A stretch of DNA of 62,106 bases, the filler included. It is 13 parts of 13 records of this genome, joined end to end, with 100 filler letters (N's around TTAATTAATTAA, not from the genome) between each part and the next. Parts side by side here need not be neighbours in the genome. Positions count along the whole stretch, not along the records: positions 4,264 to 13,538 come from SRR15195285_8923; 12 more parts are not named here. The stretch is one strand, 5' to 3'. Positions 1-49,155 of this stretch are shown piece by piece. The position numbers and the translations under genes are program-made. Each line of letters opens with the position of its first letter. Positions within the stretch are counted from its first letter, which is position 1. The notes below the pieces were generated by a model. It did not search any database and was not told where the DNA came from. It was given only the letters and a program-made list of their open reading frames with translations.

Positions 1-54
1 CGGTACCTCAGTGACTTCAGCCAGCTCGGCTGCCCGTCAGTTGTTGGCTGTGCG

Positions 55-2970
55 ATGGCGGCGGTGGCGGACGGCGACGACGAGCTGGAGGGGCTGTGCG
101 TGCGTGCGCAGGGCGGCGACCGTTCGGCGCTGCGGAGGGTGAGCGACGCGGCGTGGGCGAACGAGCCGCACCGCTGCGGGGATGGCGTGGCGCTGTCGCC
201 GCTGTGGGGGTTAGTAGAGGGTGGGACCGAGCGGGAGCTGGTGAAGGTGCTCATGGGCAGGGCGGCGCACGGCGAGGAGGAGTGCCGGGCGCTGGCCGGC
301 CTGATCCGCGGCCAGGCGGTGCGCGCTTCCATTATAGGCAACGACGATGAAGATGGTTTTCAGAGTGCGCTGGTCGAGGTCTTGGAGGGTGGCGACAAAC
401 ATGCCCTGTTTGCCCTGTTCATCCTCGCGGTGTTGGTAATGGACGAGCCGCTCGGTGCCGAGATTTTCTCACCCGCTAGCGTGGTGCAGACTGTGCAGTG
501 GATGATCAGCCTCATTGCTGCAGATGTTGATGGCGATCCAGCTGCAGCTCGCGCCTGTTTTGAGGTTACGAAGCTGCTGACTATGCAGGCTGAGCTGGTG
601 GACGCGATTGAGCGGGACGATGATACTGTGGCCCGGGCCATTGAGCTCATCTGCACCCAAACGTCGCCAGGGGCGGTTGGGATAGTGTACACCCTTGCGA
701 CAGCATCACCAGCGATTGCTCGCAAGCTGGCGATCGCACTCGCGAAGTCAGGCCCCGCTCTCCACAATCTAATCGAGACCATCCGCGGTGGCACTGCCGA
801 GTGGACAGCAGAACGGATGCTGATGCTAGCGATGCGGGCTGACCCAGTGCCGGGAAAGTCACTCCTCAAGGCCCTGCTGGCTGCAGAGGGCGGCATAGCA
901 ATGCTTGCAACGCTGACAGAGCAAGTGTTCCACTGCAGCAGCTCGCAGCGGAGCTCTGGCAATGCCTCACAAGGGCACAGCAGTAATCCACAGCCGTCGT
1001 CGCAACAATACGATGACGGGACGCTTGTACTGACACAGGACCTCCACATTCACAGTCAGACAGATGGAGATGACGAAAGTAGCGACAAAGTGCTCTCATC
1101 AAGCGCCAACGCTGGTGGCGCAAGCGCCGACCTGGTCGCTCACTATGAAGCTGTCCTGTCAGAGGAGCGGAGAAATGCGAGTGAGCTGATGAAATCAATG
1201 GCAAGCACCGCTGCTGCAGAGCGACAGGCTATGCAAGATGAGATAGATGGTTTGCACACGCAGATGAAAGAAAAAAGAGCAAAGCATGAGCTTCGGGTAG
1301 GTAAGCTAACAGAAACTGCAAAACGTGAGCGTGAGCGCAGAGTCGCCATTGAGGGCTCATGCCGCCGTGAGAAGGATGAGGCAGCCACCACGCGCCGGCA
1401 ACTTGCAGCCGCAAAGGACGACCTTGCCCAGGCCCAGACCGAGGCAGAGAAGAAAGAAGTGAGCCTGCGCCGAGACTTCGAAGCACGCTTGGCAGAAGCT
1501 ACCGATCGACTCTCCGCCCAGGAAGCTGAAGCCGAAAAGAGATCCGTGGCGTGGGCCAGTGAGCAACAGGAACTGTGGCGAAAGTTAGTGATTTGTTTAG
1601 ACGGCTACCGTGAGCTAGAAACATCGGTCGAAATCGATGCAAAACGCGCGGAGGCAGAGGCGGCGGAAATGCATCAGTGTCACGCCAAACAACTGGAAGA
1701 CGCTGGTCAGGCGTTGGCTGACTGTGAGCATCGCTGTGCAACTGTCGACCGTGAGCGCCAAGCATTGACCGCTGAGTTGCAAGAAGCACAGGCGCAGCTG
1801 TATCAACTCAAAAAGGTGTCGAGCCTGATGTCAGCACTGATCGACACAACAAATCAGCCACAGTCAGTACCATCGACCGCTCCTACGGAGCAAACACAGC
1901 GCCGTCAACCCTCGAGTGACGGAACGATGGACTCTCCGTCATTGCGCTCGCATTCTCCGTCGGGTTTAAGCTATGGCAGTGGTCGCACCGGATCTGGCTC
2001 TGAGTCGAACTCTGGTTCTGCTGACAGTGGCAGGGAAGTACATGGCAGCGCCAGAGAGCAGCCGCAGGAAGAAGGAGCCATACTTGCACTGTCTCAGACT
2101 GACCAGACACCACATCGGAACGCGAAGGCACATCTACGACAGGCGCGGGAGTACAGCGGGGGTGGCAGCAGGCGACTCAGGCGGTGCGATGCTACCGCGA
2201 GCATTGTCGGTACGAGCGTTCGAACCAGCAGCGCGAGTAGCACAAGCAGCGCCAATAGCGCCTTGAGTGACGCTGTGTCTGCTGTTCATAATGATGTGGG
2301 TGCCCTTGGGCTACAACTGCCGACTTGGTCACAAGCTGCGGCTGACGACAGCACAGGACAGGGAACCGTCTACTATGGCAGCCAGGAGACTGTCCAACCA
2401 GCAGCGTCTGGTACAGCGGCATCATCATCAGCGCGTCCTTTGGCAACAGCACCAACACCAGAGCACAGCCCTGCGTTTGAATGGCAAAAGGAGGATGTCG
2501 CAGCAAACCGCAATCGCCGGCTTGCATTTTTGGCTATGGATCCTCGCGGAGCAGGTGGAAGCGTCATGGCGTCGACCAAGCCCGAAAATCGGCATTCGTC
2601 AGAAAGCGAAGATGACGACGAAGGCATCGATAAACGTAGAGAGGCTAGTTTAGACTCGCTACCACTACGGCGCAGGGATGCAAACGCTGAGCCCAACAGT
2701 GCTGCCGGTCGCGCAAGGAGGCAGCGAGAGAAGCTCACACTGCTGCGCGCAGAGGCAGGGTGCACACAGCCGCCGGCAGATGATGACGATGACACTGAGC
2801 AGGCTAGCTACCACGCGAACGATGGCGCGAATGGCTACCACGAGGAAGGTGGGGTGGAGTCGCCGGGTATCACACCGGTAAAATCCCAGCGGGAGCATTC
2901 ATTTGGGCAATCCAGTGAGCTTGACGACTCGAGCTCGACGTTGGAAGCACAATCACCAGAGCTATTCTGA
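55..2970 (+). CDS. Uncharacterised 971-aa protein: helical ARM/HEAT-like N-terminus, central coiled coil, Ser/Asp-rich disordered C-terminus
   Basis: Uninterrupted ATG-to-TGA ORF; amphipathic helical N-terminal ~290 aa; heptad-rich E/K/A/Q segment at about aa 360-600; several SQ/TQ dipeptides. No family recognised. Confidence 0.75.
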   Translation: MAAVADGDDELEGLCVRAQGGDRSALRRVSDAAWANEPHRCGDGVALSPLWGLVEGGTERELVKVLMGRAAHGEEECRALAGLIRGQAVRASIIGNDDEDGFQSALVEVLEGGDKHALFALFILAVLVMDEPLGAEIFSPASVVQTVQWMISLIAADVDGDPAAARACFEVTKLLTMQAELVDAIERDDDTVARAIELICTQTSPGAVGIVYTLATASPAIARKLAIALAKSGPALHNLIETIRGGTAEWTAERMLMLAMRADPVPGKSLLKALLAAEGGIAMLATLTEQVFHCSSSQRSSGNASQGHSSNPQPSSQQYDDGTLVLTQDLHIHSQTDGDDESSDKVLSSSANAGGASADLVAHYEAVLSEERRNASELMKSMASTAAAERQAMQDEIDGLHTQMKEKRAKHELRVGKLTETAKRERERRVAIEGSCRREKDEAATTRRQLAAAKDDLAQAQTEAEKKEVSLRRDFEARLAEATDRLSAQEAEAEKRSVAWASEQQELWRKLVICLDGYRELETSVEIDAKRAEAEAAEMHQCHAKQLEDAGQALADCEHRCATVDRERQALTAELQEAQAQLYQLKKVSSLMSALIDTTNQPQSVPSTAPTEQTQRRQPSSDGTMDSPSLRSHSPSGLSYGSGRTGSGSESNSGSADSGREVHGSAREQPQEEGAILALSQTDQTPHRNAKAHLRQAREYSGGGSRRLRRCDATASIVGTSVRTSSASSTSSANSALSDAVSAVHNDVGALGLQLPTWSQAAADDSTGQGTVYYGSQETVQPAASGTAASSSARPLATAPTPEHSPAFEWQKEDVAANRNRRLAFLAMDPRGAGGSVMASTKPENRHSSESEDDDEGIDKRREASLDSLPLRRRDANAEPNSAAGRARRQREKLTLLRAEAGCTQPPADDDDDTEQASYHANDGANGYHEEGGVESPGITPVKSQREHSFGQSSELDDSSSTLEAQSPELF

Positions 2971-4163: not shown

Positions 4164-4263
4164 NNNNNNNNNNNNNNNNNNNNNNNNNNNNNNNNNNNNN
4201 NNNNNNNTTAATTAATTAANNNNNNNNNNNNNNNNNNNNNNNNNNNNNNNNNNNNNNNNNNNN
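4164..4263. other. Artificial contig-joining linker N44-TTAATTAATTAA-N44 (first of 12)
   Basis: Identical 100-bp spacers at 4164, 13539, 16880, 20013, 25175, 32939, 36217, 41831, 45843, 49056, 53337 and 57256; the core puts stop codons in all six frames. Confidence 0.98.
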
Positions 4264-7200
4264 AGAGGAAGAGGAAGAGGAAGAGGAAGAGGAGGAGGAA
4301 TAAATCATGCCTGGAGTGATCACGACCGTGCAAACCATACACCTGTCGCTCAAGCAGGGCAGACACAGATTACATCGAGGCCTCGACGGTCGACGTGCAA
4401 ACAGGTGAACTATGCAGACGGAGACGGAGACGGTGTGTTTGCGGGCGACAAGAGCCGATACGTGGATAGCAAGGAGATTCGAGACATTTATCCAGGCCGC
4501 TGGTGGCATCTGATTGACTCATCTGAGCCACGACGTGCAGAGGGCTTTGCTGTTCGGCTCGTCGACGATGTAATGGGTATGAGCACGAAGTATGCCAATC
4601 ATGACCACGGGGTTGTGTTGTTTGCTGAGGAGATCCGGCGAGAGTGGACATTCAATGAGGTACCAGACGACAACAGGTGGGATACTTACCATAACGATGA
4701 TGACGTCAATTCGTTGCCAGCAGGGAAAGGTCCAGAAATGGTGGTTGTATTTGTCAAAGGAGAGGAGCGAGAGAATCCCACCCGAGAGGACTTATTGCAG
4801 GCTTACCGAACGTACAGCTCATCTCGGGAGGAGTGGGAGACAGTGGACGAGATCGTAGCGGTGGATGCGTACATGGTGGCACCATATTTACCACCGTCTC
4901 ATGATTCACACGGCACGCGTCGAGGTGAGGAGACGTGCAAGATGTATGGATTCTCTGCTGAAGTGCAGACTAGTGGTTTTTGTGTCCAGTGCACCAAGTG
5001 CAATCAAAATCGTGAGCTTCCGGCAGGAGTCTTTCTACGGTATGGCAGCGCGAAGTGCTGGGAATGCTCCCTGCATCCGGATCTTGCTTGCGTATGCGAA
5101 CCAGTTGGGAGGGACGCGGAGGGCAAAAGCGCTGGTGGAGTTGCTGGCAGCGACGAACCCGCTGAGAGAGCCCGAGAGAACAGCACACCACATCGGGCAT
5201 CCGCGGGTGACGAGCTGAGCGAGCCCAAGGCCAGGGACGACGAGTTGCTGCGAAGTGTTGTCCGGGGAGCGTATGCAGCAGCACAGAAGGGGATGAGCCA
5301 AGACCTCAATCCAGCTGTAGAAGAATTGCTCAACTACCTTCGCACGCCTGAAGGTCTGCATTATCGGGCTGACTTGGTACGGGTTGCGAAAGGAAGGCCT
5401 GACGATGAAGCTGTGATGGCGTGCTACAATTGGCTCCATACCACTGGCGGGCATCTCAGGGATGACAAGGATCATCTACGAAAAACAAAAGCTCTATACC
5501 AACGGATCAATACCGTGTTGAACAAACTTACTTTTAGTTTGACTGGTCGCAAGGTCGCCACTAAACGTGGCAAAGATCAACGTTTCGCCCTCGTGCCGAT
5601 CTCGCCCAAATCCTTCAGCAAACAGATCGACAGGCCAGCAGTGCCCCCGAGAATGGACAGCAACGATCCCCGTTTGCCGTTGTGGAGCGGCTCGACCCAG
5701 CAGCTTGACGCTTGTGAAACTGCCCGCCAGACGCGGGTGGCAAAGGGCTTTGGTAGTCCCATGAAGGCTGCCCTTGATGTCTTGATCCAGTATCTTCATG
5801 AGTGTGACCAACCCTCAGGCGACCCACCCACATTCTCTGAATTGGCACTACGACTGGAAAATATCAAGGGTCTTGGCTTTGGGAAAATTTTGAAACTACT
5901 TGTGCGGCTTGAGTTTCGGCTGCCTGGTATCGATGAATATGTCAAATCGCACAGTCGAGCACTGCAGTCGGTGCGCAACACCTTAACTGACGACTACGCA
6001 CTTCTCTTCCCTCGCGACTTTCTGGCACAGCAGTGCCGTACCGATCCCGGCCCGAATTTTCAAAGGGTCAAACGAGTGCTGGTGCATCAGAAACCATGGT
6101 CTGAGCTGGACGAAAATCAGCGACTGGCGGCACAGGAGCTTAATTATACGGCACAGATTTGGGACGCCAACGAATGGCCACCTGATATGGACAAATGGAG
6201 TCGCCTCTCGCCAGATCAAGTCACCGCTGCACAAATGCTCGAGCACACAAAAAAGTCATGGGATGCAGAGTTTCGCCTAAACAATGTTTTTGAAGACGAT
6301 GCCGCAGATCTGGACATTGGTGAGGACTTATCAGACGTGGACGATGAGGACATATCTGGTAAGACAGACTTCGAAGATTTCAGTGACTTGGAAGAAGACG
6401 ACGAGGCAGAAAACAGTCTTCCTGCTACTCGTGCAGCATCAGTGACCACTTTGTCCAGCGAGTCTACCACTGTGGAGTACCTTAAGCCTGAAGACTTGCA
6501 CTTTAGTTCGTCGAATATGTTGCTGAAGTATCTAGTGCTGGAGTCAGTGAGCTCCCTTCCCACCGGAGAGGCGCTCGAAAACCGAGAGATCAAGCAGTGG
6601 AAAAACAGTGGGAAAATCGATGGATTTGAGCTGACCAAGGGTATGGCTTTGATCAAGGTTGCAGATAGAAATGTTGAGGGCAAGTCACTCGATGAAGTGC
6701 AGCAGCTAATCCGCACCGAGCTTGCTCGGCCATTGACACTCAGTTTCATCCGCGGTGGCATCCAATGGAAGATGCTGACGGCTCGAAATCCGCAAGTTGA
6801 CGCGTATCCTCCCCACGCTTGGAAGACTGAAGATGAAGTCATGCGCACAAAGTTTGCTGAGTGTGTTGGATCTGATGGCCAGCGTGTCAACAGTTCTGAC
6901 AAAATGCTCCAGCTGCTGCGGAGCTTCGGATTGCACGAAGTCCAGCTATACAATGACATGACTGGTGAAATTGAGACGAAGCAACTGTCACCGCAGAGTG
7001 TCTTAAATAATTTTGGCGGGGAAGGCAAGCTGGACTATAGGCAATTCTACAACTTCGTTCGCCGTCGAAAAATCAGCATCCACCCCGCGCAAGAGAAGAA
7101 GGCGCATGCACTGTTCGAAAAGATCGCCGCTGCAATTGAATGGAAGTTCGATCGATATACGGACTTCCAATTTGTGGTGCTAGTGCCCAACCAGAACAAT

Positions 7201-10200
7201 CTGCAGTCGCAGACCGTCGAGCGGTTGCGCGAGTTTTTGGACGAGTTCAAGCACATAGTGCCGTGCCGAGAGCGATTCTTCCAGAAATACTGCACAGACG
7301 ATGACGGAATCGACGGCGATGACAAGCTGCTAGACATGAGACGCAAAGAAGCAGAACAGAGAATTGAGACGGACCTCGTGGGCAAGAAAAATAGCAACCC
7401 GAAATCCGCAGTGGACAAGAAGTGGCGCGAGAAGGTTCGCAGAAGGATCATTGACAACCCGGAAACGCTGTTTCTCATCATTCATGATGAAGCTCACTTC
7501 GAAAACACTCTGAATGGAGCAGCTGACTCGTTTCTCAACGCATCTACTGGCCCGGGTACAGACGAAGACAGGCGGTTGTCAAATCGCGAAAACGTCATCA
7601 TCCTAGACGTCAGCGCGACACCGTTCAATTTGCTTTCTAATCAGTCGCAGATTCCAATCGCAAACGAGGAAATTTGGGACGACGAGGACTCTCCTGGCTA
7701 CTGTGGACAGACAGAGTTCACGCAGAGGTTCAACTCCTGGGAGCGCGGTTCGATCAACGGCGTGGACCCGGCGTTTGACACTGAGGTTAAGAAGCTGCTG
7801 AAGACTGTGTACACGGGCAAATACCCCAAAACGCAGGCGAACAAGAACGGTGAGCACAAAAAGCACCCGAAAGCCGGTGATCCGCACTCCAAATGTGAGG
7901 AGTTTGCTCGCATTCATGCATTGACAAAGCAATATGTCGACGCACTCGAGAAGACACGAAATCACCTTGGCAAATATCCATCAGGTGGAATGCGGACGCA
8001 CACAGAAAGGATGGTTCAAGATCTGGTGAACATACCGTTGGATTCTTCAGATGGTAGTGGCATCATGATTCTCTTGCGGCAGCCGCACAGCACTGGCCAG
8101 ATGGTGGGCAAACGAATTAAAGAGGCTCGTGATCGGCTAGGTCTGCAAAACCGTTTTGCGGTGATTGTGGACCTGAACGAGAAGCAAAATGGCCTGTACG
8201 GAGCATTGAAGGATTGGAATCGAGAGATCTTTGATAGAATGAAGCAAAGGTTGAAGACTGACGATGATGGGATGAAGCGCCAGCTGCGGACATACGAAGA
8301 CTTGGAAGGACTGCCCTGCATTTTGATCCTCTGCGAAAAAGGCAAGATGGGAGACTCGTTTCCTGACTCGTTCCGGTATTACGACCTGCGATTGCGGTAT
8401 CCCAACGATCCAGAGAGTCGGCAAGCGACTGTGCAAGACCTTGGGCGTGCGTTCGGCTACCGCACCCACGAAACACGCCCAGTCATCATTGTCGGGCATG
8501 GCTGCATGAACAAGCTCAAACAGGGAACTTCGGCGGTCAGAAGCACGAAGAGCACCACGCTCAAAGAGCGACCGCAAGGATTGCGGGGGATTGATCCTGA
8601 TTACGGCCACATGAGGTGCACCGGCGATAAGAACGACGCACAGATGTGGCCGAGGTCTGAATTCGACACTGAACCGTATAGAAAGCATTGGGAGGCGGCG
8701 GAACCAAAGGGGACCAGAGCTCTCATCGATTGGCACGGACATCCGAGTAATGACCAAGTGACTGACGGTTGGACGAATAACCCACTACACTTCCTTCTTT
8801 TCGGTCGTCCTCAAATCGGCAAGACTGGCGCGTTCTTGATGCTGATCTACCTTCTGTGGCAAGAGTGCGTTGAGGGCCGTGATGAGCTAGCAGATGGCGA
8901 AGAGGTTGAAAGCGATGACGACGATGAGGCTGACGCTGAGAGCATTCTGCAGAACATGGATCCGTTGCCTAACTACGACTATATGGTACAGCAGCAATTT
9001 GAAGACGCAAAAGTTGAGCACACAGACAACGGTTATACATTTCTGACATGCAAATGCCTGCTTAAAAACGGTTTTAAACCCTTGCCGGTGGGCCATCCGT
9101 CATCGCACAATAAGCTTGGTGGTGGCTGCCAGGCCTCACGTTGTGGCCTTAACTGTGGCAAGTATGGCGATCCAAAAGTGCCAGAGCTGTGGAAATTCTA
9201 TGTCTTGGACGGGGAAAAGCCACCACATCCTCGGGCAAAAGAGTACTCCATGAACAGCAGTAAGAAAACACCTACAAGGGCAGTGCAGACAGCTAGCACT
9301 GCCCCCGCTGCAGCGGCCCAATTGCTGCCAATCGGCCACCATCTAAATGCTCCAAATTCTGCTGTTGACTCTGCATCTGGTGGCAGCGTAAGTGCTAACA
9401 GTGCCTTGGTAGAGTCTACGTCATCGCCGACTTGGGGTGCAGCGCGGCGGTCGAGCGATGGTACAGGCTATAATTATGCATGGGTTGCGCGTGGTTCCGC
9501 CTACGCGCTCAGCCGCAACCCAATGCGGAACCAACGCGAACCCATGGGATACCGAGTGCGCTTTGATGCTCGCGATGGACAACCAGCTTGTGAGGGTCGA
9601 CTGCACATTCCAGACGAGTTGATCAACTGTTCGAGGACTCGGCGCACAGATCCAACATCAAATCCACTGATGTGGTCAGACAGAGACGGCACCTCATACG
9701 TTAATGGCCGTGGCTCTTGTGATGTCAGGCTAATGCTCCCGAGCTCTGATGAGTGCTTCATCGAGTTGGAAACGTGCAACAACAAACGGTGTGAAGCATA
9801 TGGCAAACCTTGTAATGACGAGACACACATGCGAAAGCTGCAGAAAGTGATGCGATTCCCAATTTTCCAACCGTCCTACAATCGGTCAGGATACCGATGT
9901 ATCGACGAATCATGCCGTCACTTTGGCAAGTCAACTTGCCCGGACCGTAAGCACAAACCTGAAGCTGCGCTGGACATTCGGCCTATGATGGGAAATCATT
10001 TGTACGCTCAAATTGTTGCCGTGAAGAAGTCGCAAGTCGAAGACTACAAGCGCCAGTTCCCTCGGATCACATTTTTCGAGCTGCCGGAACATGATGCAAT
10101 GCCTGAGCACTCGATTGGGTATAGCCGTTTCTACATGAAGCAGCTATCTCATATTTTGTGTCGGGATCTTGACGACTTTCCTTTCTGCGCTGTACTTGAC

Positions 10201-11424
10201 GATAATGTCAAGTACTGGAAAGGAGTCACGCTCAAGAACGACCCACTGTGGACAGGTACAGCCCATACCAGGCTACCGAACATAACTGTACCAGCATTGA
10301 TGGGGTTTGAGAAAGCCGACCCAGAGCGTCGCAAAATTTCTGACGTTCAGCAGGTAACTGTGCTGCAGCATTTTCAAACGCATGCGGACACGTTGCGAAA
10401 CTTTGCTGTGATTGGATTTGGCAAATTCAGGCCTAAGGGCGCCAATACAGTGGCGTACAAAAAGTCTCACGTGTACAGTGTGTACATTTTCAATCTGAAA
10501 AAGCTGCGCCATGTCGAGTACGACCCACGGCACTGGGTGATGGAAGACATCGATTTCAATAGACGCGTCGCCCACGCACCAGACCCTGACCAACCAGATC
10601 GTACGCTTGTCATGTGCAAGTGCCAGCGGTGGCAGTTTTTTAAACCAATGCAGCTCGGTGGGTGCGCGGGCGGCGTCGTTGAGGCTCCAGTGCCAAACCT
10701 AGCAGCACCTTCTCCGGTGCTAGTCGACGTCTCGCAATCTGTGCCTGCTGCAGGTCAGAGCATTGCAGAACTGCTCGCCACGCTGGAGCAGCGTACGATG
10801 GGGGGCACCTCGTCCAAGCACAAGCCGCACATCGCACGCTTGCGCGAGCTAGAACAGATGTATGGCATTGATGTGGCTGCTGGAGGGAACCTAATGATTG
10901 CTCGAGTGACTGCGATAGAGCAGGTCGCATCAACCATTGCACAGCGGCTGGATGTGCTTGGACAACAGCACACGGTGGGCGCTCCCTCGGCTGTGGCATA
11001 CGTCGAACGCATTCACGAACTAGAACAGATGTATGGTATTGATGTGACTGCCGGAGGATCCCTTTCTGTGAGAGTGAGTGCGATTGAGCAGGTCGCAGCA
11101 GATGCCCACCGACTTAACGAGTTGGAACGGCGTACGGTAGGGAACACCTCGTCCGGGTCGTTCATCACACGCATCTGTGAGCTAGAGCAGATGTATAGCA
11201 TTTATGTGACTGCCGGAAAGTCTCTTTCTCCCCGCCTGGGTGTGATAGAGCAGATCGTGGCAGATATCGCACAACGGCTTAACGTATTAGAACAGCGTAC
11301 GGTAGGGACCACCTCGACCGAGCCGCACACCCACCGCATCTGTGAGTTGGAAAAGTTGTATGGGCAAGCCACTGGGAAGTCTCTCCCGATGCGAGTTCGA
11401 GACATGGAGGTGTTGTGTGGCTGA
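4264..11424 (+). CDS. GREB1: GREB1-like protein (5'-truncated): CW zinc finger, PDZ-like domain, circularly permuted SF2 helicase/ATPase, TAGT-family glycosyltransferase, C-terminal tandem repeats
   Basis: Frame is open from the contig edge (RGRGRG...RPRRSTCKQVNY). GREB1-type blocks: LPCILILCEKGKMGDSFPDSFRYYDLRL; FLLFGRPQIGKTGAFL (8803-8826); FPIFQPSYNR...YKRQFP...LP...IGYSRFYMKQL...FCAVLDDN; HVYSVYIFN...EDIDFNRRV. DEAH at 7486 and SAT at 7612 precede the Walker A. Confidence 0.85.
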   Translation, partial: RGRGRGRGRGGGINHAWSDHDRANHTPVAQAGQTQITSRPRRSTCKQVNYADGDGDGVFAGDKSRYVDSKEIRDIYPGRWWHLIDSSEPRRAEGFAVRLVDDVMGMSTKYANHDHGVVLFAEEIRREWTFNEVPDDNRWDTYHNDDDVNSLPAGKGPEMVVVFVKGEERENPTREDLLQAYRTYSSSREEWETVDEIVAVDAYMVAPYLPPSHDSHGTRRGEETCKMYGFSAEVQTSGFCVQCTKCNQNRELPAGVFLRYGSAKCWECSLHPDLACVCEPVGRDAEGKSAGGVAGSDEPAERARENSTPHRASAGDELSEPKARDDELLRSVVRGAYAAAQKGMSQDLNPAVEELLNYLRTPEGLHYRADLVRVAKGRPDDEAVMACYNWLHTTGGHLRDDKDHLRKTKALYQRINTVLNKLTFSLTGRKVATKRGKDQRFALVPISPKSFSKQIDRPAVPPRMDSNDPRLPLWSGSTQQLDACETARQTRVAKGFGSPMKAALDVLIQYLHECDQPSGDPPTFSELALRLENIKGLGFGKILKLLVRLEFRLPGIDEYVKSHSRALQSVRNTLTDDYALLFPRDFLAQQCRTDPGPNFQRVKRVLVHQKPWSELDENQRLAAQELNYTAQIWDANEWPPDMDKWSRLSPDQVTAAQMLEHTKKSWDAEFRLNNVFEDDAADLDIGEDLSDVDDEDISGKTDFEDFSDLEEDDEAENSLPATRAASVTTLSSESTTVEYLKPEDLHFSSSNMLLKYLVLESVSSLPTGEALENREIKQWKNSGKIDGFELTKGMALIKVADRNVEGKSLDEVQQLIRTELARPLTLSFIRGGIQWKMLTARNPQVDAYPPHAWKTEDEVMRTKFAECVGSDGQRVNSSDKMLQLLRSFGLHEVQLYNDMTGEIETKQLSPQSVLNNFGGEGKLDYRQFYNFVRRRKISIHPAQEKKAHALFEKIAAAIEWKFDRYTDFQFVVLVPNQNNLQSQTVERLREFLDEFKHIVPCRERFFQKYCTDDDGIDGDDKLLDMRRKEAEQRIETDLVGKKNSNPKSAVDKKWREKVRRRIIDNPETLFLIIHDEAHFENTLNGAADSFLNASTGPGTDEDRRLSNRENVIILDVSATPFNLLSNQSQIPIANEEIWDDEDSPGYCGQTEFTQRFNSWERGSINGVDPAFDTEVKKLLKTVYTGKYPKTQANKNGEHKKHPKAGDPHSKCEEFARIHALTKQYVDALEKTRNHLGKYPSGGMRTHTERMVQDLVNIPLDSSDGSGIMILLRQPHSTGQMVGKRIKEARDRLGLQNRFAVIVDLNEKQNGLYGALKDWNREIFDRMKQRLKTDDDGMKRQLRTYEDLEGLPCILILCEKGKMGDSFPDSFRYYDLRLRYPNDPESRQATVQDLGRAFGYRTHETRPVIIVGHGCMNKLKQGTSAVRSTKSTTLKERPQGLRGIDPDYGHMRCTGDKNDAQMWPRSEFDTEPYRKHWEAAEPKGTRALIDWHGHPSNDQVTDGWTNNPLHFLLFGRPQIGKTGAFLMLIYLLWQECVEGRDELADGEEVESDDDDEADAESILQNMDPLPNYDYMVQQQFEDAKVEHTDNGYTFLTCKCLLKNGFKPLPVGHPSSHNKLGGGCQASRCGLNCGKYGDPKVPELWKFYVLDGEKPPHPRAKEYSMNSSKKTPTRAVQTASTAPAAAAQLLPIGHHLNAPNSAVDSASGGSVSANSALVESTSSPTWGAARRSSDGTGYNYAWVARGSAYALSRNPMRNQREPMGYRVRFDARDGQPACEGRLHIPDELINCSRTRRTDPTSNPLMWSDRDGTSYVNGRGSCDVRLMLPSSDECFIELETCNNKRCEAYGKPCNDETHMRKLQKVMRFPIFQPSYNRSGYRCIDESCRHFGKSTCPDRKHKPEAALDIRPMMGNHLYAQIVAVKKSQVEDYKRQFPRITFFELPEHDAMPEHSIGYSRFYMKQLSHILCRDLDDFPFCAVLDDNVKYWKGVTLKNDPLWTGTAHTRLPNITVPALMGFEKADPERRKISDVQQVTVLQHFQTHADTLRNFAVIGFGKFRPKGANTVAYKKSHVYSVYIFNLKKLRHVEYDPRHWVMEDIDFNRRVAHAPDPDQPDRTLVMCKCQRWQFFKPMQLGGCAGGVVEAPVPNLAAPSPVLVDVSQSVPAAGQSIAELLATLEQRTMGGTSSKHKPHIARLRELEQMYGIDVAAGGNLMIARVTAIEQVASTIAQRLDVLGQQHTVGAPSAVAYVERIHELEQMYGIDVTAGGSLSVRVSAIEQVAADAHRLNELERRTVGNTSSGSFITRICELEQMYSIYVTAGKSLSPRLGVIEQIVADIAQRLNVLEQRTVGTTSTEPHTHRICELEKLYGQATGKSLPMRVRDMEVLCG
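10770..11410 (+). repeat. Four coding tandem repeats of ~55-60 aa (LEQRTxG...RIxELEQMYGIDVxAGxxLxxRVxxIEQ)
   Basis: Visible in protein and DNA (recurrent ctagaacagatgtatgg-like and cgtacggtaggga-like segments). Confidence 0.9.
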
Positions 11425-11586
11425 GAATGGATCCATTAGTATTCCTTGTGGGTGGTCATCGTCACCCACTCCTCGCTGACAGCGGGCATGGCCACCTTCC
11501 ACCCAAAAACCAACCCTCACGCGCCACCGTTTCGGTGGGAACAAACACGTTCCAAAACTAGGGAACTGAGGTGGTTACTTGCTGTC

Positions 11587-11623
11587 GTTCATGGAGTACT
11601 CTTTTGTCCGAGGATGTGGTGGC
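11587..11623 (-). repeat. 37-bp inverted copy of 9219-9255 (36/37 identical)
   Basis: gttcatggagtactcttttgtccgaggatgtggtggc is the reverse complement of 9219-9255 except for one C/T difference. Confidence 0.95.
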
Positions 11624-12077
11624 CAAGTGTTTTGAACAACAGAGTTTGCAAGCAACACACTGTGATACCGGAAATAAGAGGATGTCGGCGGAAGGTTGTG
11701 GCGGACAAGAGGATCCACCACACCACTCAAGGATTTACAGAGAAAGGGCATCGAAGAGGGCGTCGATGATGCGGTAGCCGCCTTCTCTCAACAACGGACG
11801 GCACAGCGTAGAGCTATGTGCACTGTGACTGGCGCCACACTAGCAAGTTCACTTATGAAGTGCGACAGAAAGTCACCTCGACAGTGAACTTGCAAGCTTG
11901 GCTGATCAGCAAGTGCAGAACCTCTTGTGCAGCAGAGGTTAGATCAGATTGGCACTAGACAGCTTTGCGAAATTGCAGCAGGAACTACGTCGAGTCGAAG
12001 CTGGGCGAAGGACTTTGCAGCTGCAACACATTGTCTGAGGTGTGAGTTTTGCGCTCCATTACCGCGTTACTCGCAAA

Positions 12078-12824
12078 CTACAACTCGTTCTTTTTGGCAG
12101 CCCACTCTTCGAGCAATTTCTTTGTCTTGGGGTTGCGAGTCAGCTCGACGGGAGTCTTCCCGTTCTTATCAGGATAATCATGTGGCACACCTGGTGGAAA
12201 TGATTCCGTAAGTCTCCACACGTAGGAGTCTAGTTGGATGAGGCCTAGGCAAACGCACCTGCTTCCAAGAATGCCTTAACAGTGTCCGTGTGGCGCTGCT
12301 CCTGGCCCCAACATGCGCGATGCATGCCAATGAAGCCATCTTTGTGCGTGTCTAGAAGGTCCAGGCCATGCTCCTTGAGGATGGGCACCAAGTCGGCCCG
12401 GCCCTGGAAGCCAACGCCGTGAAACGGCGTATCTGTGGAATCGGCAGAACAGGGTCAGATGGCCACCTGCGACGAGCTGCACCACAGCCAGAGGTACACC
12501 GCAATCACGTCGGGGTTGTGCTTCAGAAGCGCCACCACGTTCTTGGTCTTGCCCTGCAGAACAGCGGCCATGAGCGGTGTCTGTCCACCTTGACCCTTCT
12601 TGTTGATTTCCTGTGCAGCAACACAAAACGCGTTCAGCTGCGAGGCGCTCCGTGGTCAAGCATCGGCCCTGGGCGCGGCTCACCGCGCCCATCTCGATGG
12701 CCTCATCGATGTAGCTGGCACTCTCCCTCATCAGAGCCTGCTCGAGGTGCCTGTCAGCGTCCTTGTTCTTCTTAGCGTCGGTCACACCGGCCACGAGCAG
12801 CAGGATCATGCATACGGAGCGCAT
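12078..12824 (-). CDS. Secretory-pathway ankyrin-repeat protein (spliced) ending in a KDEL-like KNEL
   Basis: Signal peptide MRSVCMILLLVAGVTDA; ankyrin motifs across exons (INKKGQGGQTPLMAAVLQG, PFHGVGFQGR, DGFIGMHRACWG, NGKTPVEL); last exon ends ...WAAKKNEL-stop. Confidence 0.75.
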
Positions 12825-13255
12825 CTCGTGGCTGGAACGAGGGCCGGAGCGACGGAGCAGCCTTAGGCCTGCAGTGACTGACGCTGCGTGGCGCGCGACG
12901 CCGCACCGCCGCCGGTGCCACCGGCGGGCGGCGGCGGTCCACAGTGTCAGTCGACACAGTCTCGACAGTCCACTCGATCCCTCGGCTGGGACACACAGCT
13001 GAAGCTCCACACAACAGCCAATATCGAATATCCTGCCTTCCTCCTGTGTATTCAAATTCATAAACGTGTACTCGATGTACCAGTCACACCGGCCGCGGAT
13101 CGGGGGCCGAAGTGCCGATAAGAGACCCCCGAAAAAGTCACGTCACGTGACTTTTTTGAGGACCGGTGATTCGGCAGGTGACTCTCTGAGCAGTGACTGC
13201 GTGGTGCGGGCGTCGGCGAGAATCAGAGCGGAGATGATGGCGATGGTCGTGCGGG

Positions 13256-13538
13256 ATGGCCGCTAGGTGTGGCCTCGGGGGCTGTCACGGGCTTCGATGC
13301 CCCGAGTGCCCAGCGTGCCCAGCGTGCCCTGAGTGCCCGGCGTGCCCGGACTGCCTGCGGGGGGCAAGGGGGGGCCGTGCTAGCATGGACGTGCGGAGCT
13401 TTGACGCGACGGACTGCGTCTTCGGTGTGGCTCTCGCCTTCCTCGCGCTGAGTGTGCTGTCCGCGCCCTGGGTGCGCCGGCAGATCGGCGCCGCTGCCCA
13501 GGTCTGCACATGTCTATGCCCTGATCCCGGGGCCTCGT
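13256..13538 (+). CDS. Partial gene start with (CPx)n repeat and a hydrophobic segment
   Basis: CPECPACPACPECPACPDC followed by VFGVALAFLALSVL; cut by the contig end; start uncertain. Confidence 0.4.
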
Positions 13539-13638
13539 NNNNNNNNNNNNNNNNNNNNNNNNNNNNNNNNNNNNNNNNNNNNTTAATTAATTAANNNNNN
13601 NNNNNNNNNNNNNNNNNNNNNNNNNNNNNNNNNNNNNN

Positions 13639-16879: not shown

Positions 16880-17299
16880 NNNNNNNNNNNNNNNNNNNNN
16901 NNNNNNNNNNNNNNNNNNNNNNNTTAATTAATTAANNNNNNNNNNNNNNNNNNNNNNNNNNNNNNNNNNNNNNNNNNNNCCAGCCCGTGCCACTCTGCGC
17001 AGCATAGAAACACTCCGGCGCTTATCGATTGAATCCCCGATTAACGCCGCTGGCGGCGGGGGTGGTACGTACATACGTATACCGGTACATGTATGCGGCG
17101 CCCTCCGTGGCGGGGCCCGGCCGGGGGCATCGCATCGCAGCAAGCCTTCGATTCATGCACAGTATGCACACCATGGCGGGTCTGCCAGACTGTGAGTGCG
17201 TGTGGTGACGGACGGAGAGGGTTGTGCGCTGGCGCTGCGCAGCTGATAGCAGGACACGGCTGAGACGACACCGCTGCGGGCGTTGACGCGACGCGGTGA

Positions 17300-19863: not shown

Positions 19864-20542
19864 CGCGTGCGTGCGTGCTCCGTCGCTGCATGCTTGTGGA
19901 CGTGTGCTCCCGCCACAGACAGCAGCCAACACGTCACTCGAGTCACGCGTGCCGGCTGTGTCGATGAGCCTGCAAGCTCGCGTGCATCAGTGCCCAGGTT
20001 GAGTGGGAGTTANNNNNNNNNNNNNNNNNNNNNNNNNNNNNNNNNNNNNNNNNNNNTTAATTAATTAANNNNNNNNNNNNNNNNNNNNNNNNNNNNNNNN
20101 NNNNNNNNNNNNCAAAATCTGAATGGGTGCCTATGACCAATTAAGCCCGAATGTCCCACTTACAAGAAGTACGCCTGCATGGGAACGTGCGTACGAGCGT
20201 ACTCGACGAGTACTGTACCCACGGAGGTGTACCGTACACATTTCAACATGTAGACTACAGTACGCCGTACATACAGTACATGTATAGTAGTACCATGAAT
20301 AGATCTAGAGTGTATAATACGGACGGGGATCACGCCGGCGCCGCGCGCGCGTCCGTCTGCATGCGCTGTGCGTACGTACCGGCGCGCCGGTCGACGTACG
20401 CTCGCGCGTACGGCCGCCTAGAGCCGACTCCCTACAGCTGTACCAAGTTGGACACGCGCCCATTCGTTTGACAGACACTGCGTGGCACGGAGTACGCCAG
20501 GTCGACTCAATACACACCAATCATCTCGCACCCACGGCACCG

Positions 20543-24302: not shown

Positions 24303-25274
24303 GGCGACTCCTCGCTGCGGTTAGCCTGTCTTGCTGTTGTTGTTGCTGCTGTCGTTGTCGTTGTGTGTGCCGTCGTTACGACGGGTTGCTGTAGCCAGTC
24401 TACAGTCGAAAGTGGTACATATACCGCGGACCCGCAAGAAACGAAGCGTGCGTACCATGCAGATAGCGTACCTACGCATCCATGTACGCACCTCGTACCT
24501 ACTGGTACGCCTGTACGCACCGCGTACGTAAACACATGCACCGGTACGTACGCACATTCACCGACCGGCGTGGCGCGAGGCGACCATGATGACTTGATAC
24601 CATTAATGATTGCTATGAAGAGTACGGAACCGTGCGTATTACTTGTACAGTACGCCGTACGCACCGGCGGGATGACCACACCGCATGACGGGGCAGTGCG
24701 AGACGCTCGATAGAATGAGTACCGTATTATCTATTAATACCGATACGTACGTACTTCGTTCATCGTACACGCTCGCGCACGCATGCACGCCGCCACGCGC
24801 GCGCTAGACCGTACTATACAGCGCTATACTGTACGTCCTAACGTCTAGTCGTCTACCGGCGATGTACTGTGCGATACTGTACTCGGCGCGCGGCGCGTGC
24901 GTACTCGTCCGTATTATGTACCGCGCGGCCCGAAGGCGTACGCACGCACGCGCGCGGAACGCGTACGCACCGTGGTGATGGGAGAGCTACTATGATAGTA
25001 TGTGCGTATGCGTGTGCGTACACCAATTGCGGACACGGTATCGAATGCTACAGTACATCGCGGAGCGCGAGCGTACCCATCCAGCAGGAAGACGCAAGAA
25101 CTCGAGAGTACGTCTGAACTTGTGACGGTGCCACCGCACCAGCACACCACCACCACCACCAACAACAACAACAANNNNNNNNNNNNNNNNNNNNNNNNNN
25201 NNNNNNNNNNNNNNNNNNTTAATTAATTAANNNNNNNNNNNNNNNNNNNNNNNNNNNNNNNNNNNNNNNNNNNN

Positions 25275-32938: not shown

Positions 32939-33038
32939 NNNNNNNNNNNNNNNNNNNNNNNNNNNNNNNNNNNNNNNNNNNNTTAATTAATTAANNNNNN
33001 NNNNNNNNNNNNNNNNNNNNNNNNNNNNNNNNNNNNNN

Positions 33039-35803: not shown

Positions 35804-36316
35804 GCGGCAAGTGGCAAGCATTTCTGCGGAACATCATCACTAGGACGGTGGCTAGTATTCCAAGATGGCCTGATTCATGCTTGTCTTCGTCTTGGAAAGT
35901 GCGCCTCCCACAAATCGCGCGCAAATTTGTGTGCACACAAAATGTATCTGCTGGTGCTTTTGATCGCGTAGTCATCCATTATTTTGCAAGATAGTGTTTA
36001 TCAGCCTAGTTGGGCACGTGCACCCATCGCCCTCCAGCGCCACTTGGATTGCTCTTGGCTGTCGCCCCTGCTTTCGCTTCCGTGTCTTCAGTTGCTCGCT
36101 TGCCCTCATTGGCGTCCACCAAATGGCTTTCGGTATGAAGCATTCACCGTGGACTGCAGACGGCGAACCCGGCCCACTTTTGTACAATAATTCTGTACGA
36201 TGCATTTCAGAAATTCNNNNNNNNNNNNNNNNNNNNNNNNNNNNNNNNNNNNNNNNNNNNTTAATTAATTAANNNNNNNNNNNNNNNNNNNNNNNNNNNN
36301 NNNNNNNNNNNNNNNN

Positions 36317-41663: not shown

Positions 41664-42209
41664 CTCCGCCGTCCCACCAGCGCTCTCTTCGCAGCGCCGC
41701 AGCGCCAAGTAGCCTCTCCCGCAACGGCCACCCCCCCACGTGTGCCGCACTGTCGCACCTGTGTCACAGTGAGCGATCCAGTGTATGGGATGGACGGCCA
41801 CGGGGCGGCACAAGCGCAGCGCAGCAGCACNNNNNNNNNNNNNNNNNNNNNNNNNNNNNNNNNNNNNNNNNNNNTTAATTAATTAANNNNNNNNNNNNNN
41901 NNNNNNNNNNNNNNNNNNNNNNNNNNNNNNTACCATGCGTGATCCGGAATTAAAGATACCGGCTCGGGCGGTCCACACTCCAGTCCAATCGATTCTCAGA
42001 TTCCCCCTGTTGTTGTTTTTTCCGCCGTTGGCCCAATCGCGGGATTGGCGTGGTGTGCTCGCCGTCTGCACAGTGGTGGGCGCTGAGGGCAGTGAGCGAC
42101 CAGACCAGCAGGGCGCTGAGGGGACACACGCATACACATCTTGAAAGCTGATACATAGGGGGGGGTCGCTGGCTGGTGCGCTGCTGGGCACCCAGTGGCG
42201 GTGTGAGGG

Positions 42210-45200: not shown

Positions 45201-45842
45201 GATGGTGGTGGCAACACGACGACACAGGCGCAACCTCCAACCAAAGCCGAGCTGCGGCAGCTAGCGTTGGCGGTCAACAAGGCCAAGAGTGACCTTGAGC
45301 ATACTTTGTCCTCGCTGGAAGCAGCAGAGCTTCCGGAGATGCAGGAGACCTTAAGCGGGGTTGTTGCTGCGCACAAAAGGCTGTACCGCCAACTATACAC
45401 ACGTTGGGAAGAGGGGTCAGCGGCTGCTGCTGCAGCAGCAGCCGCGGCAACGGCGGCGGCAAAAACCAACGTGTCTATGCCGAGCACGCCTGAATCGGGA
45501 CGTGTCAATCGGGTCGCGCTTACCAGTGGTGGTTCAAGGATACCACGTCTCTCTCCGCACTCGGGCCTGAACACCCGCAGCCCTTCCATGCCAGAGCCAG
45601 AGCCGCAGCTGGACCTAGATCCAGAGGAAGTCGAGTCCCCTGAGCTTTCGTTGATGGCAGAACAGTTGCATCCAGACGACCGCGGCTTAACGGAGCAGCT
45701 AACCGATAGCATGGAAGATCAAGAGGAGTCGCTTGTCAGCCCTGCTGCTGTTCCAGTTGATGGGCGCCAGGACGCAGCCAAGACTGTCACCAACGTAGCA
45801 GATAGTCTCACTGGGTTGTGGAGCGTCACAGGCCTATGCGAC
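42210..45842 (+). CDS. Multi-EF-hand protein with four repeated modules and a SAP domain (possibly 3'-partial)
   Basis: EF loops DRDKSGKLDLTEF, DSDRSGSVSLHEF, DADGGGSLSVEEL, DRDNSGGLGFDEF, DVNNNEEIDVQEL; SAP-like SIRSLKHELRTRGLDSTGTKIELMRRL at ~44375-44460. Confidence 0.82.
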
Positions 45843-45942
45843 NNNNNNNNNNNNNNNNNNNNNNNNNNNNNNNNNNNNNNNNNNNNTTAATTAATTAANN
45901 NNNNNNNNNNNNNNNNNNNNNNNNNNNNNNNNNNNNNNNNNN

Positions 45943-49055: not shown

Positions 49056-49155
49056 NNNNNNNNNNNNNNNNNNNNNNNNNNNNNNNNNNNNNNNNNNNNT
49101 TAATTAATTAANNNNNNNNNNNNNNNNNNNNNNNNNNNNNNNNNNNNNNNNNNNN

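Follow-up and report, generated by a model that had tools for sequence, protein, structure and literature searches.

The window (the whole stretch of DNA analysed, about 62 kb) consists of 13 contigs joined end to end, separated by 12 artificial linkers made up of N and TTAATTAATTAA. Translation of the window revealed a single open frame of 2386 codons plus a stop codon, and this is a 5′-truncated gene from a marine protist that encodes an enzyme of the GREB1 family (Table 1). Frame 1 contained one stop codon across the length of the ORF, compared with 88 and 146 in the other two forward frames. The frame that the first-pass annotation had assigned to the gene is thus real, but position 4264 is not the start of the gene: it is the first base after a linker (N44-TTAATTAATTAA-N44), i.e. 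the edge of a contig. Since this position adjoins the linker and frame 1 is free of stops through the first 104 codons, where each of the other two frames has four, we concluded that the sequence encoding the GREB1-like protein is truncated at its 5′ end. Short contigs from two metatranscriptome runs aligned to the ORF at 99–100 % identity with no joints inside it, and independent DNA- and RNA-library contigs agreed with it at 99–100 %; stretches of the ORF not covered by these contigs, and the fact that none of them crossed the 5′ edge, were given no evidential weight. The N-terminal ‘RG tract’ of the first-pass annotation turned out to be an AGAGGA microsatellite at the contig edge. The letters RxRR...VNY, also noted there, are present at aa 39–51, but were recognized as a motif by no tool. 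An Rfam search of the window gave no match.

Table 1. Features of the GREB1-like gene and its contig boundary (positions in the window; aa, residues of the predicted protein)
Feature	Residues (aa)	Position (nt)	Strand	Basis or remark
Artificial linker N44-TTAATTAATTAA-N44		4164..4263	.	Contig boundary; 5′ end of gene missing upstream
ORF of GREB1-like protein	2386 aa + stop	4264..11424	+	Open at 5′ contig edge
AGAGGA microsatellite (×6.2)		4264..4300	+	At contig edge; ‘RG tract’ of first-pass annotation
Cys-rich CW-like zinc finger	240–278	4981..5097	+	Sub-threshold zf-CW match
Two Trp-framed motifs of ~23 aa, W..L...Q..AAQ.L......WD	612–634 and 645–667	6097..6264	+	
Pre-helicase region	665–934	6256..7065	+	Common only to relative P0002 (blastp); no Pfam match
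Circularly permuted SF2 helicase module	~935–1545	7066..8898	+	PF20692, conserved columns, AlphaFold/Foldseek
DEAH	1075–1078	7486–7497	+	Helicase motif II
SAT	1117–1119		+	Helicase motif III
QDLGRAFGY	1391–1399		+	Motif VI
GKT	1519–1521	8818–8826	+	Walker A
Linker, Cys-rich in places (15 Cys in 361 aa), with one low-complexity stretch		8899..9975	+	
TAGT (GT-A) glycosyltransferase domain	~1905–2130	9976..10653	+	PF20691, conservation, Foldseek
G-Y-S-R	1952–1955		+	TAGT G.SR motif
LDDN	1978–1981	10195–10206	+	Acidic DD (DxD-like) motif
EDIDFN	2094–2099	10543–10560	+	ED..N motif
C-terminal tail, a 55-aa unit repeated ~3.5 times in tandem		10765..11421	+	Protein-level alignment

In the core of the encoded protein, an SF2 helicase-type NTPase with circular permutation precedes a GT-A glycosyltransferase of the TAGT type; the protein is a new member of the known GREB1 family. 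The Pfam family cpSF2-GREB1 (PF20692) matched with 240.2 bits (E 7.2e-71; curated cut-off 26.2) and TAGT (PF20691) with 43.4 bits (E 4.8e-11; curated cut-off 27.5); both profile searches had been proposed with the first-pass annotation and both exceeded the curated cut-offs. As in the GREB1 family, the TAGT domain lies C-terminal to the helicase in the same uninterrupted polypeptide. The earlier recognition of a GREB1-type ATPase/helicase and a TAGT glycosyltransferase in one protein was confirmed by the Pfam matches, the permuted motifs, the catalytic residues and the AlphaFold/Foldseek results.

The order of the helicase motifs is permuted, with DEAH (aa 1075), SAT (aa 1117) and motif VI (aa 1391) followed by GKT (aa 1519). 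Walker A thus comes only after motif II, motif III and the second RecA lobe, which is the circular permutation of the GREB1 family. The D, E and H of motif II were conserved in 32 of 32 aligned rows and GKT in 38 of 38, the window protein having the consensus residue at each. Walker A (GKT), Walker B (DExH) and motif III (SAT), which are expected of an active SF2 enzyme, were therefore all present and in invariant columns, whereas only the first of the two arginines expected in motif VI (Q..GR..R) was found, with Gly at the position of the second. The column of the second Arg contained R in 32 of the 41 aligned rows and G in nine, and its replacement by Gly in the window protein makes real turnover of ATP uncertain.

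The conserved DD and ED..N motifs of the TAGT family were both present in the glycosyltransferase domain. The window protein agreed with the consensus at D1979 (26 of 26 rows), D1980 (24/26) and R1955 (27/28), and likewise at E2094 (22/25), D2095 (24/25) and N2099 (22/24); the LDDN and EDIDF strings that had been picked out from the C-terminal glycosyltransferase at first reading thus both fall in the most conserved TAGT columns. An AlphaFold model of the core (aa 935–2134) had a mean pLDDT of 75.4, with values below 50 at model residues 731–822, in the linker between helicase and glycosyltransferase. Foldseek searches with this model retrieved SF2 helicases (vaccinia RNA polymerase chain Y, Dicer-2, XPB and MDA5), and matches to the GT-A enzymes RmlT, GnT-I, TarP and B3GNT2 (probability 0.97–1.00 over ~270–300 columns) support a GT-A fold for the predicted glycosyltransferase domain. 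PDB sequence searches with the helicase part and with the TAGT part gave nothing significant, neither core domain was matched in PHROGs, and a family-profile scan of IMG/VR brought up no viral relative.

Database searches identified 41 relatives, nearly all of which possess both cpSF2-GREB1 and TAGT. These relatives (P0002–P0049) include sequences from Capsaspora, Stylophora, Owenia, Palaemon and Phaeothamnion as well as marine sequences. Identity over the core was 22–46 %, and 77 %, with conservative changes, for the fragment P0028. In a FastTree phylogeny, for which only SH-like supports are available and from which six of the 42 rows were left out (fewer than 350 columns covered), the window protein nested in a clade of seven rows with a support of 97. 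The N-terminal modules differed between members of this clade: a CW-like finger in the window protein, no known module in P0002, a bromodomain in P0003 (genuine, at 53.7 bits) and ankyrin in P0004. As relatives within the same clade carry different N-terminal modules, accessory domains appear to swap freely in the GREB1-like family; outside the clade, the modules found in this position were OTU, kinase and ZZ. No reader domain was present upstream of the helicase in any of 10 metagenomic relatives.

In P0002, the nearest full-length relative, the DD motif reads D-C and the ED motif A-D, so that the second D of the former and the E of the latter are gone, which indicates that inactivation does occur in this clade. 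Together with the loss of the second motif VI Arg from the window protein and the shortness of a contig that lacks the 5′ end of the gene, this might suggest that the gene is in decay, encodes a catalytically dead member of the family or is a chimera of the assembly, and plays no enzymatic part. We regard this as highly improbable, since a frame of this length has been kept free of stops, both domains retain all their near-invariant catalytic residues except the second Arg of motif VI, P0028 resembles the window protein closely despite coming from another source, and the independent DNA- and RNA-library contigs follow the ORF without joints.

The regions outside the core had few counterparts. 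Residues 1–665 matched no relative in blastp searches, residues 40–330 had no match among 1.84 billion protein representatives (phmmer), and residues 320–700 had no relatives at E up to 0.01 in a word-index search. A metagenome scan with aa 40–330 returned 61 pattern matches, none of which was a relative, and the ESM Atlas gave no usable match for aa 60–290; the AlphaFold prediction for aa 40–330, made with no alignment, was unusable (mean pLDDT 32.7). The Trp-framed motif occurred nowhere else in the window. For aa 730–960 an EF-hand was suggested by an ESM Atlas cluster (0.92), but the 132 shared features are within the range of chance and the match was kept only as a lead; a suspected PDZ-like segment near aa 780–830 had no Pfam support. 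In the C-terminal tail the 55-aa unit is anchored by [LI].ELE[QK][ML]Y at aa 2193, 2250, 2304 and 2359, and Tandem Repeats Finder (TRF) detected 2.1 copies of a 165-nt period at 11020–11361. This tail was absent from P0028 and from 35 loci.

The CW-type finger of the first-pass annotation was only partly upheld. The string CVQCTKCNQNRELP...WECSLHPDLAC was located at 4981–5091 with its four cysteines in place, and bases 4888–5038 were identical in an independent RNA-library contig. The profile search proposed at the time did find a zf-CW (PF07496) match, with 14.8 bits (E 0.03) for the whole protein and 21.0 bits (E 3.4e-4) for an isolated piece of 76 aa, both below the cut-off of 27.5, and the alignment spanned only model positions 2–35 of 47. 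The candidate zinc ligands are C243, C246, C268 and either C276 or C278 (C-x2-C-x21-C-x7/9-C). Were the finger unrelated to the CW domain, being a Cys-rich zinc knuckle of another kind or resembling CW only by chance, this would account for the sub-threshold scores and the incomplete alignment, and would permit no inference on histone reading in either direction. A search of PDB sequences with the finger at E up to 10 found no solved CW structure, the only match being a chance one to C1r (E 1.1), and the absence of any match among the 1.84 billion representatives points the same way. Six-frame translations of the 35 loci contained three chance occurrences of the loose pattern C..C...W.C...C, which also favours this explanation. 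On the other hand, zf-CW was the sole Pfam family to match the isolated piece, and the cysteines are sharply local (seven in 41 aa at the finger, three in the preceding 240 aa). The four-Cys spacing (2 / 21 / 7–9) and the VQC, R.LP and W.C elements also fit what we take to be the layout of CW domains. On balance we consider a finger of non-CW origin unlikely, and treat it below as a degenerate CW-like finger.

Two of the three CW tryptophans, both of them cage residues, are missing from this finger. The first-pass annotation had noted that the first cage Trp appeared to be replaced by Cys, and this holds (C240 in place of W1, the floor); it had not recorded that W2, the wall, is also lost (N249), so that the Trp pair expected of a zf-CW reader is absent and only W266 is kept. 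F239, a Phe beside C240, might conceivably make up for part of the lost aromatic contact. The gap between C240 and N249 is nine residues, the same as that between Thr496 and Trp505 of MORC2. The MORC2 CW domain, which lacks the floor Trp, is described as not binding H3K4me3 and as contacting its own ATPase module instead, this single loss being sufficient to abolish binding (PMC5811534), whilst a DNA-binding function has been ascribed to the CW domain of MORC4 (PMC7596504). Because its aromatic cage is lost, the finger of the window protein is not expected to read H3K4 methylation. Judging by its sequence, the degenerate finger probably no longer reads histone marks, and by analogy with MORC2 and MORC4 it is more likely to contact the enzyme’s own ATPase module, DNA or another protein. 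The finger was shared by no relative examined by blastp, phmmer, metagenome scan or in the 35 loci. The earlier proposal that a histone-mark reader on this enzyme favours a chromatin or DNA substrate is not supported by a finger that is sub-threshold, has lost both cage Trp residues and is conserved in no relative found. Other reader domains may lie in the part of the N-terminus that is missing.

In the mechanism that we consider most likely, the helicase module would bind ATP and nucleic acid and keep the enzyme on a nucleic-acid-bound complex, whilst the GT-A domain, through its acidic DD motif and a presumed bound metal, would transfer a sugar from a UDP-sugar to the acceptor. The orphan N-terminal extension with its degenerate CW-like finger, the two Trp-framed motifs and the C-terminal 55-aa repeats would act as adaptors for targeting, regulation or oligomerization and would not be catalytic. 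By analogy with human GREB1, the single most likely acceptor would be Ser/Thr of nuclear or chromatin-associated proteins, to which we assign a probability of roughly 0.45, slightly above DNA. A hydroxymethyl-pyrimidine in DNA, as for the kinetoplastid enzyme JGT, is a possible acceptor by a similar analogy, though we hold it to be the less probable of the two; RNA or something else takes up the rest of the odds. Among the points against a protein acceptor, the TAGT family is rooted in DNA-base glycosyltransferases, and the bromodomain of P0003 points to chromatin.

The rival DNA reading, which develops the proposal of the first-pass annotation, would have the enzyme brought to marked chromatin to add a sugar to a hydroxymethylated pyrimidine of the nuclear DNA and so produce a modification like base J, with the helicase opening or tracking the DNA for the transferase. 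It is consistent with membership of the TAGT family, whose characterized protist member is JGT, which converts hmU to base J (PMC8616854, PMC7968844). The intact Walker A, DEAH and SAT motifs fit work on nucleic acid, the bromodomain of the clade-mate P0003 provides a general link to chromatin, and independent fusion to chromatin domains is described as a usual way of recruiting eukaryotic DNA modifiers (PMC4738411). Against this stand the sub-threshold, cage-less finger found in no relative, and the other members of the clade, which carry ankyrin or no known module, with no upstream reader in the 10 metagenomic relatives. No PHROG DNA-glycosyltransferase family matched the TAGT domain. No TET/JBP family was found among the 20 other ORFs of the window that were scanned, which is weak evidence because the window is only 62 kb. 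In addition, the sole characterized protein of the same architecture acts on protein (PMC7968844). We therefore consider a base J-like role of this kind somewhat unlikely, and a glycosyltransferase acting on nuclear or chromatin-associated proteins is the reading we prefer.

GREB1-type helicase-glycosyltransferases are widespread in eukaryotes, and a substrate has been reported for the human enzyme alone, that substrate being a protein. The retention of the ATP-binding motifs, reportedly lost from GREB1, together with the bromodomain relative, makes the seven-row clade a reasonable place to seek an ancestral DNA-directed TAGT activity that may survive in eukaryotic nuclei. It is conceivable, but in our view quite improbable, that the members of this clade (with the bromodomain of P0003 and the CW-derived finger of the window protein) are chromatin-recruited writers of a glycosylated pyrimidine in the nuclear DNA of algae or protists. 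If true, a second base J-like system, independent of the kinetoplastid one and lying outside that group, would use a helicase-coupled transferase. Had the enzyme carried a histone-methyl reader, this would have spoken for DNA glycosylation guided by chromatin; the finger, being degenerate and limited to this one lineage, does not bear that out. The find is thus useful as a catalogue entry and as a candidate for biochemistry rather than evidence of a new DNA modification, and the window protein is a fairly ordinary addition to the known GREB1-like family.

Comparison with known systems, made for animal GREB1 and GREB1L through profiles and their published description, showed that both core domains occur there too, and in identical order (PF20692, PF20691). 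Like the window protein, these animal proteins are large, have a GT-A domain with conserved acidic motifs and possess extra N-terminal parts. Human GREB1, the only characterized fusion of cpSF2 and TAGT, O-GlcNAcylates ER-alpha; a GREB1-type N-terminal Zn-binding region is described for it, and its helicase is described as catalytically inactive (PMC7968844). The window protein, in contrast, has its Walker A, DEAH and SAT motifs intact, so its biology may differ from that of GREB1 and be nearer to nucleic acid. Further differences are the orphan N-terminal extension, the CW-like finger, the Trp motifs and the 55-aa repeats, all of which are lineage-specific. No GREB1 N-terminal Pfam family was detected in the window protein at E up to 10, its true N-terminus being missing. 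The protist and invertebrate GREB1-like relatives have a homologous core with the same permuted motifs, but the CW-like finger and the C-terminal repeats were found in none of them.

The wider TAGT family is described as rooted in DNA-base glycosyltransferases, namely the phage TAGTs and kinetoplastid JGT (PMC7968844, PMC8616854). These share the Pfam TAGT family with the window protein and are described as GT-A enzymes that sugar-coat hydroxymethyl-pyrimidines in DNA; a TET/JBP hydroxylase is the partner that defines them. No GREB1-type fusions are described in PMC8195603. The window protein joins its TAGT domain to a helicase in one chain. JGT and the phage TAGTs are not known to be fused to a cpSF2 helicase. 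MORC2 and MORC1 resemble the window protein in a different respect, as they too combine an NTPase with a CW-type finger whose aromatic cage is broken. The MORC2 CW domain lacks the floor Trp only, whereas floor and wall are both non-aromatic in the window protein, where the CW assignment itself is sub-threshold, and the NTPase is of the GHKL type in MORC proteins and of the SF2 type here.

The GREB1-like protein under study (P0001), searched as a whole, exceeded the curated cut-offs of two Pfam families, the circularly permuted SF2 helicase family cpSF2-GREB1 (240.2 bits, E 7.2e-71) and the TET/JBP-associated glycosyltransferase family TAGT (43.4 bits, E 4.8e-11), for both of which Pfam holds dedicated models. 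The GREB1-like ATPase and TAGT core proposed by the first-pass annotation was thus borne out. Relatives numbered 19 in one database search and 22 in another, and nearly all had both domains; they include sequences from Capsaspora, a coral (Stylophora), an annelid (Owenia), a shrimp (Palaemon) and an ochrophyte alga (Phaeothamnion). The top full-length matches were marine sequences with 34–48 % identity, and a 444 aa fragment (P0028) was 77 % identical across the TAGT domain.

In the 42-row alignment of the family (A1), the helicase motifs followed a permuted order, with Walker A last, after DEAH, SAT and motif VI, and the motif columns showed next to no variation (motif II D, E and H in 32/32 rows, GKT in 38/38, and motif VI Q, G and R in 41/41). 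The sole departure from the helicase motif consensus was the second arginine of motif VI (aa 1398 in P0001), which was replaced by glycine in nine of 41 rows (P0001, P0002, P0003, P0004, P0029, P0030, P0034, P0044 and P0045), all in or near the P0001 clade; this clade-level loss may weaken ATP hydrolysis. P0001 also carried the TAGT consensus elements G-Y-S-R (R in 27/28 rows), L-D-D-N (D's in 26/26 and 24/26) and E-D-I-D-F-N (E in 22/25, D in 24/25 and N in 22/24), so that the LDDN and EDIDF motifs picked out earlier were found to lie in conserved columns. An AlphaFold model of aa 935–2134, built on A1, had a mean pLDDT of 75.4, with 487 residues scoring at least 90. Foldseek comparison with the PDB gave SF2 helicases over approximately 530–640 columns (vaccinia RNA polymerase complex chain Y, Dicer-2, XPB, MDA5 and DDM1) and GT-A glycosyltransferases over approximately 270–300 columns (RmlT, GnT-I, TarP and B3GNT2), the domain matched by each set being assigned from these alignment lengths as the output gives no aligned ranges. 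Membership of P0001 in the GREB1 family is well founded, given the Pfam matches, the permuted motifs, the conserved TAGT residues and the structural matches. Non-animal GREB1-like proteins and their relationship to the kinetoplastid base J glucosyltransferase (JGT) and phage TAGTs have reportedly been described since Iyer et al. 2013; judged by its sequence, the present gene is a new member of the family with its own lineage-specific additions.

Features of the GREB1-like gene and its surroundings
Feature	Amino acids	Nucleotides	Strand	Remark
Linkers 1–6		4164–4263, 13539–13638, 16880–16979, 20013–20112, 25175–25274, 32939–33038		N44-TTAATTAATTAA-N44
Linkers 7–12		36217–36316, 41831–41930, 45843–45942, 49056–49155, 53337–53436, 57256–57355		N44-TTAATTAATTAA-N44
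GREB1-like ORF		4264–11424	+	Single frame, 2386 codons and stop
CW-like finger	240–276	4981–5091	+	Letters cited by the first-pass annotation
Two 23 aa Trp-framed motifs	612–667			Lineage-specific
DEAH (motif II)	1075–1078			A1, 42 rows
SAT	1117–1119			A1, 42 rows
Motif VI	1391–1399			A1, 42 rows
Walker A, GKT	1519–1521			A1, 42 rows
Cys-rich linker				Between helicase and transferase; lineage-specific
About 3.5 tandem 55 aa repeats				C-terminus; lineage-specific
Downstream gene		12100–13061	−	Seemingly interrupted by short introns (inspection of sequence)

Across the ORF, frame 1 had one stop, whereas the remaining forward frames had 88 and 146. Position 4264 is not the start of the gene but a contig edge, being the first base past a linker. 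Because of this position, the lack of stops from the first 104 codons of frame 1 (each other frame has four) and the occurrence of the earliest in-frame Met at residue 104, the protein is predicted almost certainly to extend upstream beyond the contig edge, its N-terminus being missing. The ‘RG tract’ claimed there corresponds to an AGAGGA ×6.2 microsatellite at the edge, the kind of repeat where assemblies break, and, like the apparent start, is an artefact of that edge. Independent data agreed with the sequence: short contigs of two DNA runs and two metatranscriptome runs, the latter marine, matched the ORF at 99–100 % identity, with no joints reported inside it, and one was identical over 4888–5038, spanning the C240 and N249 codons; the presence of such contigs in an RNA library is no proof of transcription.

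The 62 kb window comprised 13 pieces cut by 12 linkers, which ruled out a single chromosome stretch; because separate contigs were strung together, gene adjacency across linkers is artificial and gene context unusable. Several long ORFs ran open into contig edges. On reading of its sequence, piece 4264–13538, which carries the GREB1-like gene, appears to be genomic rather than a transcript (a poly(A) end was absent). Part of the downstream minus-strand gene, ORF 12276–13061, is on record as a protein, and no Pfam family match was found for it. Between 12944 and 13253 the summed contig depth was far above that over the GREB1-like gene (X2, 22.5; X5, 10.1; X1, 5.6), and at 13084 and 13138 contigs of three runs diverged into unlike sequence; the region is suggestive of a short element that is repeated or shared widely. 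Other contigs carried Pfam-matched ORFs of 1523 aa with an RTT107-type BRCT domain (37242–41813, minus strand), 1226 aa with EF-hands and a SAP domain (42210–45890, plus strand) and 1274 aa with EF-hands (57359–61183, plus strand). The 20 other window ORFs scanned gave no match to a TET/JBP-type family, which says little as only 62 kb were covered.

A FastTree phylogeny of 36 of the 42 A1 rows (six with coverage below 350 columns were dropped; supports are SH-like only) grouped P0001 with the relatives P0002 and P0031 (support 97), joined next by P0029 and P0030 (99) and then by the pair P0003 and P0004 (97). N-terminal modules within this clade comprised the CW-like finger of P0001, no recognised module in P0002, a true bromodomain in P0003 (53.7 bits; cut-off, 21.7 bits) and a long ankyrin array in P0004; outside it, an OTU peptidase domain (P0006), a protein kinase (P0008) and ZZ fingers (P0010 and P0011) were found. 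Coral-type ankyrin GREB1-like forms clustered in large numbers, P0013 representing 255 member sequences, and 10 metagenomic loci in which 100–430 residues precede the helicase gave no Pfam domain besides the helicase itself. Because N-terminal modules differ both inside the clade and further out, the family exchanges such adaptors freely; by predicted domain content, one close relative (P0003) points to chromatin via an acetyl-lysine reader, whereas most do not. The TAGT domain of P0002, the nearest full-length relative, had D-C for D-D and A-D for E-D in A1, with helicase motifs retained, and its transferase is probably inactive.

As judged from its motifs, P0001 joins in one polypeptide a permuted SF2 NTPase, its ATP-binding motifs intact, and a GT-A transferase whose acidic motif is likewise intact. 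The motor module would keep the enzyme on nucleic acid or a nucleic-acid-bound complex, where the transferase would use a UDP-sugar to glycosylate an acceptor, and the orphan N- and C-terminal parts would guide or regulate it. A protein acceptor is tentatively favoured (probability roughly 0.45), because human GREB1, the only characterised enzyme of such architecture, O-GlcNAcylates ER-alpha (PMC7968844). DNA is a more doubtful acceptor, in keeping with which the TAGT family takes in phage DNA glycosyltransferases and JGT, which converts hmU to base J (PMC7968844 and PMC8616854), and P0001 retains its ATP-binding motifs, unlike human GREB1, whose helicase is called inactive in PMC7968844. The bromodomain of clade-mate P0003 likewise speaks for DNA, as does the common recruitment of eukaryotic DNA modifiers by chromatin-domain fusions (PMC4738411, in its Box 2). 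RNA or another acceptor accounts for the remainder. The boldest reading still tenable, in which enzymes of the P0001 clade create a glycosylated base in the nuclear DNA of protists, is improbable.

Sequence outside the core was searched for relatives. By blastp against 19 near-length relatives, aa 1–665 gave no match and aa 665–935 were common to P0002 only. No relative was found by phmmer with aa 40–330 against 1.84 billion representatives (0 matches at E ≤0.001), by a metagenome scan with the same segment or by a search with aa 320–700, and tblastn of aa 1–940 and aa 2135–2386 against 35 metagenomic family loci gave no match. Among the family proteins examined, a loose CW pattern occurred in P0001 alone, and the C-terminal 55 aa repeats were absent from the P0028 fragment. 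By these comparisons, both the finger and the sequence around it are lineage-specific. In the literature searched, which did not include Iyer et al. 2013 or any supplements, no GREB1-like protein was described as carrying a CW-type finger. For the pre-helicase segment aa 730–960 (6451–7143), no Pfam match was found and the nearest ESM Atlas entry was an EF-hand cluster (0.92, with only 132 shared features); the region around aa 917–931 looked loop-like by eye.

The letters cited for a CW finger were present, and zf-CW was the only Pfam family to match the isolated 76 aa piece (21.0 bits, E 3.4e-4); however, this score and that on the whole protein (14.8 bits, E 0.03) were below the cut-off of 27.5 bits, with only model positions 2–35 of 47 aligned. 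Cysteines were sharply clustered (seven in 41 residues of the finger versus three in the 240 residues before), and C243, C246, C268 and C276 or C278 are candidate ligands fitting the CW layout, of which the V-Q-C, R-x-L-P and W-x-C elements were also seen. The finger is probably a CW derivative. In the CW consensus, the first tryptophan (in W-V-Q-C) and the second (in K-W-R) form the methyl-lysine cage. Both were replaced in P0001, by C240 and, nine residues further, by N249, leaving W266 as the sole remaining (third) CW tryptophan; the substitution of the first by cysteine had been recognized correctly, but the loss was understated. Because floor and wall tryptophans are both missing, reading of H3K4 methylation is unlikely, and a CW-derived finger would more likely have a structural or regulatory role or serve as a contact with DNA or protein. 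The first-pass observation is partly confirmed and its interpretation partly supported, the GREB1-like identity holding and the histone-mark guidance not. There are parallels in the MORC proteins: the MORC4 CW is credited with a DNA-binding function in PMC7596504, and, according to PMC5811534, the degenerate MORC2 CW is well folded, docks onto MORC2's own ATPase module and does not bind H3K4me3, its ‘floor’ tryptophan being missing (Thr496). MORC2 has a ‘right wall’ tryptophan (Trp505) nine residues past that position (PMC5811534), whereas the P0001 finger is without both floor and wall.
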